From sequence record KX130862: a stretch of 64,000 nucleotides of DNA; one strand, 5' to 3'. The stretch comes from Shigella phage SHFML-26. The position numbers were made by a program, and so were the translations under genes. The notes beneath the pieces are model-generated. The model was not told the origin of the DNA. It saw only the letters and a program-made list of their open reading frames with translations, and made no database searches. Positions 40,330-41,431 of this stretch are shown here, piece after piece. Every line of letters begins with the position of its first letter. Position 1 is the first letter of the stretch.

Positions 40330-40563
40330 TTATTTTTTACGAAAAATTGATTTATTTTCTGCTGCCCATTTTTCAATAACTGCAGCAGGACCAGTAACAA
40401 CAATTTTATCACCGTAATCTTCTGCGGCGAGTTGACCGAAATTATCTAATGCATCACGAAGAACTCCATGAGGCATTTCACCCATTTTATCTTTCTTGCC
40501 GGTGTAAATAAACTCAACTTTTGCATCAGAAGATTCAGCGATAAATTCTTTGAAAGTTTTCAT
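40330..40563 (-). CDS. internal protein with capsid targeting sequence (IPI-like)
   Basis: Track ORF 40330..40575; starts MKTFKEFIAES, the internal-protein targeting consensus; own early promoter. Confidence 0.65.
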   Translation of the reverse strand: MKTFKEFIAESSDAKVEFIYTGKKDKMGEMPHGVLRDALDNFGQLAAEDYGDKIVVTGPAAVIEKWAAENKSIFRKK

Positions 40564-40600
40564 TTTAGTTTCCATTCGATTGTTTTGTTTTGATAGGGTA

Positions 40601-40630
40601 ATAGTATCACAACTAAAACCCTATGTAAAC
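40601..40630 (-). promoter_or_regulatory. T4-type early promoter of internal-protein gene 40330..40563
   Basis: GTTTAC, 18 nt, TACTAT; about 60 bp block nearly identical to the one at 40921-40950. Confidence 0.55.
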
Positions 40631-40642
40631 AACTTTGTGAAA

Positions 40643-40900
40643 TTATTTTAAATCTTCTAATCGTTTCTTCATCTTAGAACCATTTTTAGCAATTTCTCCT
40701 GCATCGGAGCATAATGCTAAAAGTGCTTTAACTTTCGTTTGGTCTCCTTTAAAAGATGAAGGATCTACTGCAGCAGCAAGTTCTTTAATACGAGAGAAAA
40801 GACGCTCAGCTTCAGCTAAAGCCATTCCAAGCTTTACTTCCATACCGTGGGAAGATTCAGTGATAGTAGTTTTTGTAGCAAACTCTTTGAAAGTTTTCAT
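40643..40900 (-). CDS. internal protein with targeting-sequence-like N-terminus
   Basis: 85 aa; starts MKTFKEFATK; preceded by a near-identical copy of the promoter module of the neighbouring internal-protein gene. Confidence 0.6.
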   Translation of the reverse strand: MKTFKEFATKTTITESSHGMEVKLGMALAEAERLFSRIKELAAAVDPSSFKGDQTKVKALLALCSDAGEIAKNGSKMKKRLEDLK

Positions 40901-40920
40901 TTTATTTTCCTAATTAATTT

Positions 40921-40950
40921 TGATGAGGTAATAGTATCACTACCTCATCA
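40921..40950 (-). promoter_or_regulatory. T4-type early promoter of internal-protein gene 40643..40900
   Basis: Duplicate promoter module (ttgtgaaattattttaaat ... gtaaac ... atagta). Confidence 0.55.
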
Positions 40951-40972
40951 GCATGTAAACAACTTTGTGAAA

Positions 40973-41431
40973 TTATTTTAAATCATCTGCCCAATCGAGT
41001 TTAAGAGGCTCTTTGTATTCACGATCTAATACGACCGGAATTTGTACATCACCGCTAAATGATAAGGGCCCAACATTATAAGACAATGTTATATGCGGTG
41101 TGTAATCATCAAAATCATGTGTAGCACCTAGTGCCCGCGCATACATGTGTCGACAGCGCAGATATTCAGAATCTAGCACAAGTACAAGAGTCGATCCATC
41201 TTGTGTTTTCCATACTTCTAAATGTCCAGAAGAAGCTACTTCAAAACTTCCGCTTGATGGAACATACGGAACATTTACTCTTGAATAACATATGGTCGAA
41301 TGAATTTTTTCTCTAGGAACTGGATTAGGAACACGTAAAGAGCGCTGGAGTTCTTCCAGCGCATCAAGTGTTAATTCTGAAAACTTAGCTGCTACATAAA
41401 GACCCGTTGAAAAGTCTTTAAATTCCATCAT
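40973..41431 (-). CDS. 57B: gp57B, 2H-phosphoesterase-like nuclease (Acb1 anti-CBASS family)
   Basis: 152 aa; two H-x-T/S motifs (HSTICY, HITLSY); located directly upstream of 57A as in T4. Confidence 0.75.

Follow-up and report, generated by a model that had tools for sequence, protein, structure and literature searches.

What kind of locus carries two small genes that begin alike, differ in the rest of their coding sequence and each follow nearly the same stretch of intergenic DNA? We addressed this question in Shigella phage SHFML-26 (sequence record KX130862), of which we analyzed a single stretch of 64,000 nucleotides, hereafter called the window. A sequence-only reading of the window had pointed to two adjacent open reading frames (ORFs) resembling genes for internal proteins (IPs) of T-even phages. 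Both ORFs are real, and they lie on the minus strand, which that reading had left unstated. We conclude that the locus is very probably an ipI-type hyperplastic locus of a Tequatrovirus, holding two independent cassettes, ip5 and ip6, that can be exchanged by recombination between the repeated intergenic modules. Both the feature and the two genes had been described and named before, and little about them is new.

40643..40900, minus strand: ip5, encoding an 85-residue internal head protein precursor; matches phrog_3499 'internal head protein' end to end (1.2e-49)
40330..40563, minus strand: ip6, encoding a 77-residue internal protein precursor; matches phrog_8111 'internal virion protein' end to end (1.5e-50)

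The 2.1 kb around the locus share 98-99% DNA identity with many Tequatrovirus (T4-like) genomes; our search with this DNA returned 793 matching records, 207 of which covered at least 80% of the query. The gene order in annotated relatives is gp1-57A-57B-two internal-protein genes-trna.4-trna.3-trna.2-tRNA cluster, and in the window ip5 and ip6 likewise lie between two fixed borders, 57B on the left and trna.4 on the right.

40973..41431, minus strand: 57B, an Acb1 phosphodiesterase that counters the cyclic oligonucleotide-based antiphage signaling system (CBASS); Pfam Acb1 2.7e-60, phrog_755, named 57B in Sf21 and KRT47
40086..40271, minus strand: trna.4, a 61-residue predicted membrane protein; phrog_1692, named Trna.4 in T4, Sf21 and VR26

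Synteny with T4, T2 and others places T4 ipI in this same slot, so the comparison with the T4 ipI locus that had been suggested leads to the interval between 57B and trna.4. The names given elsewhere agree. The JB75 annotation lists the two genes as Ip5 and Ip6 and that of VR26 as ip5 and ip6, Sf21 describes the upstream gene as 'similar to phage T2L Ip5', and the source names in UniRef are 'Ip5 internal head protein' (T2), 'Ip5' (RB70) and 'Ip6 putative internal head protein'. Identity is 99% between Ip5 and T2 Ip5 and 92% between Ip5 and RB70 Ip5; Ip6, which is named in VR20, VR26 and JB75, shares 71-94% identity with proteins called Ip6 or internal head protein. Because T4 carries ipI in the same slot, and because of these names and the PHROG matches, we identify the locus as the ipI locus. 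Ip5 and Ip6 are reportedly among the internal proteins named by Repoila et al. in 1994, in EMBO J 13:4181.

Three intergenic modules separate the genes of this slot.

40901..40972, minus strand: module A, 72 nt, before ip5; -35 hexamer GTTTAC at 40960-40955, GTGATACTAT (TGn plus -10 hexamer) at 40940-40931, Shine-Dalgarno sequence (SD) AGGAAA
40564..40642, minus strand: module B, 79 nt, before ip6; GTTTAC at 40630-40625, GTGATACTAT at 40610-40601
40272..40329, minus strand: module C, 58 nt, before trna.4; GTTTAC at 40329-40324, GTGATACTAT at 40309-40300, SD GAGGAG

Each module runs from an A/T-rich stretch through GTTTAC, a 14-nt segment and GTGATACTAT (TGn plus TACTAT) to a short untranslated leader with an SD and the ATG; the -35 hexamer of module C starts directly after the ip6 stop codon. 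The resulting promoters, GTTTAC-N14-GTGA-TACTAT with 17-nt spacing between -35 and -10, match the UP/-35/TGn/-10 design of T4 early promoters (PMC2988021). Module A scored 9/12 with TG in our promoter scan, and the JB75 record annotates promoters at sites homologous to the modules. Judged by these motifs, the modules are strong T4 early promoters.

The blocks upstream of ip5 and ip6 had been described as near-identical duplicates. On exact alignment, the 71 nt at 40588-40658 and those at 40918-40988 match without gaps at 85% identity and have in common exact runs of 32 nt (40623-40654 = 40953-40984) and 14 nt (40597-40610 = 40927-40940). By contrast, about 2000 random pairs of 90-nt window segments had a longest common word of 11 nt or less, apart from a single case of 15 nt. 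Chance similarity of two promoters is thus rejected. The whole window contains no more than two copies of the 32-mer and three of the 14-mer. Both 57B and ip5 end in GAT TTA AAA TAA (D-L-K-stop), and this sequence belongs to the 32-nt run; the repeat thus overlaps coding sequence. A third, diverged copy, which the sequence-only reading had passed over, stands ahead of trna.4 (40272-40329; 62% identity over 71 nt) and has exact runs of 21 nt in common with module B and 18 nt with module A.

To see what becomes of these modules in related genomes, we compared the 57B-trna.4 interval of the window with that of 12 other phages. The number of cassettes ranged from none to four.

No cassette: slur13
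One cassette: T4 (ipI), KRT47 (ip5), RPN226 (a 90-residue Ip), G8 (a 102-residue Ip)
Two cassettes: the window, Sf21 and JB75 (ip5 and ip6); T2 (ip5 and a 102-residue Ip); ECML-134 (ipI and ip6); LF82-3
Three cassettes: 310Ecol104PP
Four cassettes: VR26

We then split 28 Tequatrovirus modules at their core into a left half (the 5' arm of an inverted repeat described below, together with the flank that separates it from the upstream gene) and a right half (the 3' arm plus the downstream 5' untranslated region). Only a few left and right halves were found, variously combined and joined at a common core, GTGATACTATTA. KRT47 differs from the window exactly by the lack of ip6: there, the left half of module B is fused to the right half of C, as a crossover within the 21-nt repeat common to these two modules would produce. 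T4 and ECML-134 stand in the same relation to each other, and in slur13, 57B is joined directly to a module made of the left half of B and the right half of C. Hybrid modules whose arms come from different parents and do not pair were found in T2 (an ATAGGGT arm with TACCTCATC), in 310Ecol104PP (two cases) and in the IMG/VR contigs L022 and L027; each time, the junction lies in the GTGATACTATTA core. Indeed, the indel and replacement junctions among related genomes fall in modules (28 modules, 13 genomes). These module mosaics give direct comparative support, at the level of aligned genomes, to cassette exchange by recombination between modules. The hyperplastic cassette organization proposed by the sequence-only reading is thereby borne out by the T4 ipI slot, the ip5 and ip6 names, the early-promoter flanks and the gain, loss and replacement of cassettes in 13 genomes. 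The mosaic table of module halves also gives concrete crossover points and could be of use in building phages that carry a chosen set of Ips.

The layout in VR26, a more distantly related Gaprivervirus, is looser. Positions 1244-2430 of its compared stretch hold four leader-bearing ORFs, the first three separated by 8-nt spacers only; promoter modules were seen only before ip6 and trna.4, with GTATAC or GTGTAC in place of GTTTAC. One promoter per cassette is therefore not universal.

The two genes of the window are independent in content as well as in distribution. Both products start with MKTFKEF, as does T4 IPI, positions 4 and 7 being aromatic or hydrophobic, as expected of a targeting leader (N-termini MKTFKEFATKTTITESS for Ip5, longer MKTFKEFATKTTITESSHGMEV; MKTFKEFIAESS for Ip6, longer MKTFKEFIAESSDAKVEF). 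A BLASTP comparison aligned only residues 1-17 of Ip5 with residues 1-12 of Ip6, across a 5-residue gap. Because the alignment takes in leader residues only, we regard the bodies as unrelated, as had been noted from the translations. The predicted folds (AlphaFold 2) differ too: Ip5 was modeled as a two-helix hairpin (mean pLDDT, the model's per-residue confidence, 71) and Ip6 as a small alpha/beta fold (mean pLDDT 80), with a disordered leader (pLDDT <50) in each. Pfam searches with Ip5 and Ip6 gave nothing credible. The protein families are narrow, with 5 clusters for Ip5 and 11 for Ip6, all T-even-like, and remote homology could not be built.

A cassette consists of an intergenic module plus a small ORF, the only conserved part of the ORF being the N-terminal capsid-targeting leader that ends in (I)-X-E. 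Homologous or microhomology recombination between modules, within one genome or between co-infecting phages, would delete, insert or replace whole promoter-plus-gene units and leave expression undisturbed. Since each gene has its own promoter and its own capsid address label, recombination between promoter blocks can swap whole functional units.

Besides the promoter, all three modules hold an inverted repeat straddling the -10 hexamer, a feature absent from the sequence-only reading. Module A has 10-bp arms, TGATGAGGTA and TACCTCATCA (40950-40941 and 40930-40921); the arms of module B are ATAGGGT (40624-40618) and ACCCTAT (40599-40593), and those of module C are GATGGGGTA (40318-40310) and TACCCTATC (40299-40291), with one G.U pair. 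The RNA folds of modules A, B and C reach -17.4, -17.5 and -16.1 kcal/mol, with z scores of -4.45, -4.77 and -3.47 against shuffled sequences. Stems across the -10 hexamer measure 7-10 bp in the modules, compared with at most 2-6 complementary bases in the ten other GTTTAC promoters of the window; the hairpins centred on this hexamer span 7-13 bp. An Rfam scan of 36500-42500 found tRNAs only and nothing at the modules.

Could the hairpins, rather than the promoters and the repeats as such, be the functional core of the modules, acting as insulating terminators or attenuators, or directing recombination as DNA cruciforms or protein-binding palindromes? Of the alternatives we weighed, this one survives best, although we consider it unlikely. 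In its favor are the strength and statistical rarity of the hairpins in 3/3 modules, the pattern of stem substitutions, and the literature on PeSLs (elements pairing an early promoter with a stem-loop), which terms such elements promoter-terminator motifs (PMC4122927). As to the substitutions, two compensatory pairs distinguish the A-type from the C-type stem (G-C/A-T swapped to A-T/G-C), one distinguishes the distant trna.4 promoters of L015 and L027 (GGGTT/AACCC versus GGGCT/AGCCC), and three single-base stem variants all produce G.U on the sense strand. This pattern hints at selection on sense-strand RNA structure, yet quasipalindrome-templated repair could give the same compensatory changes without selection. 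We report the variants as counts and not with a covariation statistic because the 17 stretches returned by our IMG/VR scan for the module core comprise too few independent stem haplotypes.

Several results argue against such a role. Our terminator scan found 0 terminator-like sites at the modules, and no U-tract follows any hairpin, so the 'promoter-terminator' label of the PeSLs does not appear to fit. Hairpins as canonical intrinsic terminators are thus rejected. The stem-loop of a PeSL precedes the promoter, but that of our modules surrounds the -10 hexamer. Natural phages retain recombinant modules whose arms do not match; the hairpin can therefore be lost without loss of the cassette and is to that extent dispensable. 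Because a module's own transcript would start within the 3' arm, the hairpin should form only in read-through RNA from upstream, and it probably serves RNA 3'-end formation or stability, or attenuates weakly; a canonical terminator is less likely. A similar structure occurs elsewhere in the window: at an early-type promoter at 36633 on the minus strand (GTTTACACAGGCTCATGATTGAGATATTAT), a 6-bp inverted repeat, AGGCTC/GAGCCT, straddles the -10 hexamer, and hairpins centred on -10 may therefore not be limited to the ip locus.

The second alternative concerns the Ip5 leader. Its targeting sequence had been said to deviate (ATK) and perhaps to go unprocessed; if it were defective, Ip5 would be neither packaged nor processed and would be an ordinary early cytoplasmic protein. 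We find this improbable. According to a review of Black's work (PMC9026906), the gp21 protease cuts after L/I-X-E, positions 4 and 7 of the capsid-targeting sequence govern targeting, and positions 8 and 10 govern processing. Read against these rules, both proteins appear to conform at positions 4 and 7, at the L/I-X-E motif and at positions 8 and 10. Ip6 has the canonical leader of 10 residues, MKTFKEFIAE, with the gp21 motif IAE at residues 8-10. The Ip5 leader, residues 1-15 (MKTFKEFATKTTITE), consists of MKTFKEF, a Thr-rich insertion of 5 residues (ATKTT) and I-T-E. The insertion between F7 and I-T-E does set it apart from the 10-residue MKTYQEFIAE. However, T4 IPI, which is packaged and processed, has a longer insertion at the same place: it begins MKTFKEFTSTTTPVSTITE, an extended leader of the same kind, and it is cut after ITE, since the mature IPI* (PDB 2JUB, 76 residues) corresponds to IPI residues 20-95 and begins directly after that motif. 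Ip5 retains positions 4 and 7, and the I-T-E at residues 13-15 fits the gp21 motif. In the Ip5 orthologues of P0004 and VR26, a plain 10-residue leader, M(K/Q)TYQTF(I/M)TE, is followed by an identical SSHGMEVKLG, and in the leader alignment, the junction ..TE|SSHGMEV is invariant among orthologues with long and short leaders. The suspicion thus finds no support, and from these alignments the Ip5 leader is a normal IPI-type leader, not a defective one. The predicted mature parts are residues 16-85 for Ip5 (7.5 kDa, isoelectric point (pI) 9.2) and residues 11-77 for Ip6 (7.4 kDa, pI 6.5).

The start of ip6 also bears a trace of exchange. Around 40520-40585 on the minus strand, about 12 substitutions and a 3-nt indel separate the window from JB75 and Sf21, which are elsewhere about 99-100% identical across the locus. 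This patch is limited to the 5' untranslated region and the first ~16 codons (MKTYQEFIAETADV -> MKTFKEFIAESSDA), and the first seven codons of ip6 now match the ip5 leader (31 nt, 94% identity). It looks like a short gene-conversion tract, and its match to the ip5 leader suggests that leader-coding sequences are recombination substrates too. An in-frame ATG four codons 5' of the ip6 start (METKMKT..., 40575) lies within a Shine-Dalgarno-like GGAAA and is unused in most annotations.

A third alternative, that the blocks are independent copies of a strong early promoter consensus kept by selection for strength, with no part in recombination, is very unlikely. It draws on the ten other GTTTAC-N-TAnnAT promoters of the window, which have the same consensus elements and part of the downstream ACTATCAACTAC motif. 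The identity between the modules exceeds the promoter elements, however: the 32-nt run spans the ends of two unrelated genes, the 21- and 18-nt runs lie near the -10 hexamer, and the other early promoters of the window lack these exact runs. Furthermore, module halves reassort between genomes, and the presence/absence variants differ by exact module-to-module units. That ip5 and ip6 are tandem paralogues, arisen by duplication of one gene with its promoter and later divergence, is hardly tenable in spite of their tandem layout, similar size, common leader and common upstream block, given that they align in the leader only, belong to different PHROG families, have different predicted folds (helical hairpin versus alpha/beta) and occur apart, with ip5 alone in KRT47 or beside the 102-residue Ip in T2 and ip6 beside ipI in ECML-134.

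What, then, would the products of these cassettes do? Host RNA polymerase would transcribe each ip gene from its own early promoter, and read-through from upstream late in infection may add transcripts. The leaders would target the precursors to the prohead scaffolding core, where the gp21 protease would remove them, after E15 in Ip5 and after E10 in Ip6, and the mature proteins of about 7.5 kDa would be injected with the DNA. Each Ip would then most likely neutralize one host-defence variant, the leading candidate being a GmrSD-type Type IV restriction enzyme that acts on DNA with glucosyl-hydroxymethylcytosine (glucosyl-hmC). T4 Ip1, Ip2 and Ip3, which resemble one another in the leader only, inhibit one specific GmrSD-type Type IV enzyme each, and the study that showed this expects every protein of the two Ip loci to be directed at some variant of the GmrSD system (PMC12373910). 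Since Ip1-3 are mutually unrelated, a lack of homology to characterized inhibitors is no argument against the same function for Ip5 and Ip6. By analogy, we regard inhibition of specific GmrSD-type restriction enzymes as their most likely function, at about even odds. A wider proposal, that Ip5 and Ip6 are injected against two further defence variants (GmrSD-type or other) and, in addition, that the -10 hairpin is both a selected RNA element and a preferred crossover point, we put forward tentatively and with some doubt.

The ip messages may have a further property. T4 RegB nuclease cuts GGAG. The SDs of the ip genes are AGGAAA or TGGAAA, whereas that of trna.4 is GAGGAG; as they lack GGAG, the ip messages might escape early inactivation by RegB. 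This is speculation, and one ip gene of 310Ecol104PP stands behind a GGAG leader, which counts against it.

Not all results favor a locus of injected proteins exchanged through these modules, and the following weigh against it, together with the empty terminator scan, the ill-fitting PeSL label and the dispensable hairpin described above. A scan for the late-promoter motif TATAAATA found none directly upstream of ip5 or ip6, and the nearest on the coding strand, at 42014-42021, lies inside gene 1; the Ip needed for prohead assembly would therefore be made early or from late transcripts that read through the hairpins. Ip5 has two more L/I-X-E motifs, at residues 28-30 and 38-40 in the first helix, which might be cut too. 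Mature Ip6 is near neutral, and the classical IPs are described as basic. Searches of PDB sequences with Ip5 and Ip6 found no relative, 2JUB (IPI*) included, and a Foldseek comparison of the Ip6 model with the PDB gave generic ferredoxin-like alpha/beta matches, none at E <= 0.001. Our literature search returned no report of Ip5 or Ip6 in virions and nothing on them as phage proteins.

Set beside known systems, the locus is a textbook case of the swappable set of injected counter-defence proteins of T-even phages. According to three later papers (PMC2839356, PMC4122927, PMC12373910), the 1994 work of Repoila et al. reported that T-even phages have two IP loci of high polymorphism and about ten IP-like ORFs with a conserved leader, and proposed as shuffling mediators PeSL-like sequences made of T4 early promoters and AT-rich stem-loops. 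All our findings agree with that account. The window resembles the T-even IP loci in slot, leader motif, early-promoter flanks and the varying number, order and identity of ORFs. It differs from the T4 ipI locus in holding ip5 and ip6 in place of the single ipI, and in nothing essential. The likeness to PeSLs (PMC2839356; Comeau 2014, PMC4122927) is also close: these are elements of about 60-80 bp with an early promoter, a stem-loop and an SD that recur among the small variable ORFs of hyperplastic regions and are tied to indels and replacements, and the PST/T4 PeSL consensus TTTACW-N17-TAYWAT fits our modules. Apart from the position of the stem and the missing U-tract, the modules differ from PeSLs in that their stems are not G/C runs. 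The elements associated with T-even IPs have been called analogues, not homologues, of the PeSLs of RB49 and phi1 (PMC2839356, Arbiol 2010).

Among the characterized proteins, T4 IPI/IPI*, the inhibitor of E. coli CT596 GmrSD, comes nearest, since its gene likewise follows module A in the 57B-trna.4 slot; in T4 and ECML-134, ipI replaces ip5. IPI and Ip5 are alike in their extended leader (MKTFKEF...ITE) and in having a basic mature part of about 7.5-8 kDa. By contrast, these mature parts have no sequence similarity, and the fold predicted for Ip5 consists of helices only, as against the beta sheets with flanking helices of IPI*. T4 Ip2 and Ip3 (inhibitors of GmrSD(ECOR21) and GmrSD(ECOR17); PMC12373910) are likewise leader-bearing, injected, encoded in an IP locus and specific for enzyme variants, but their genes lie in the other IP locus (e-denV region), and their sequences show no relation to those of Ip5 and Ip6. 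The text of PMC12373910 covers Ip1-3 and has 0 occurrences of Ip5 and Ip6. The demonstration in 2025 that Ip1, Ip2 and Ip3 act against GmrSD makes Ip5 and Ip6 obvious candidates; their targets and the role of the -10 hairpin would be extensions of established work.

The fixed left border, 57B, encodes a full-length Acb1, which some records still call 'RNA ligase', and the repeated block takes in the stop of this gene and the three codons before it. A known counter-defence gene thus directly adjoins the swappable cassettes of injected proteins.

The window also contains the second IP locus. A 157-residue protein with the leader MKTYQEFITE is encoded at 32167-32640 on the minus strand (phrog_3155 'internal virion protein', 3.2e-101), downstream of denV (32650-33066); the lysozyme gene e lies at 33126-33620. 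The order at this locus in T4 is e-ipIII-ipII-denV; in the window, no Ip gene lies between e and denV. With a strict promoter pattern, no GTTTAC-type module was found beside the gene for the 157-residue Ip.

Two further observations concern the surroundings of the ipI-type locus. One of the matching records, OR584013.1 'Pseudomonas phage PsgM02F', is 98.8% identical at the locus and gives Pseudomonas coronafaciens pv. garcae as host, which is odd for a T4-like coliphage. Beyond trna.4, the cluster of eight tRNAs (11 in Sf21 and 10 in JB75) is interrupted by a gene for a 221-residue GIY-YIG-type homing endonuclease (37512-38177, minus strand; phrog_314, 7e-50), with tRNAs at 37436-37508 and 38219-38790 on either side; the endonuclease resembles T4 SegB.

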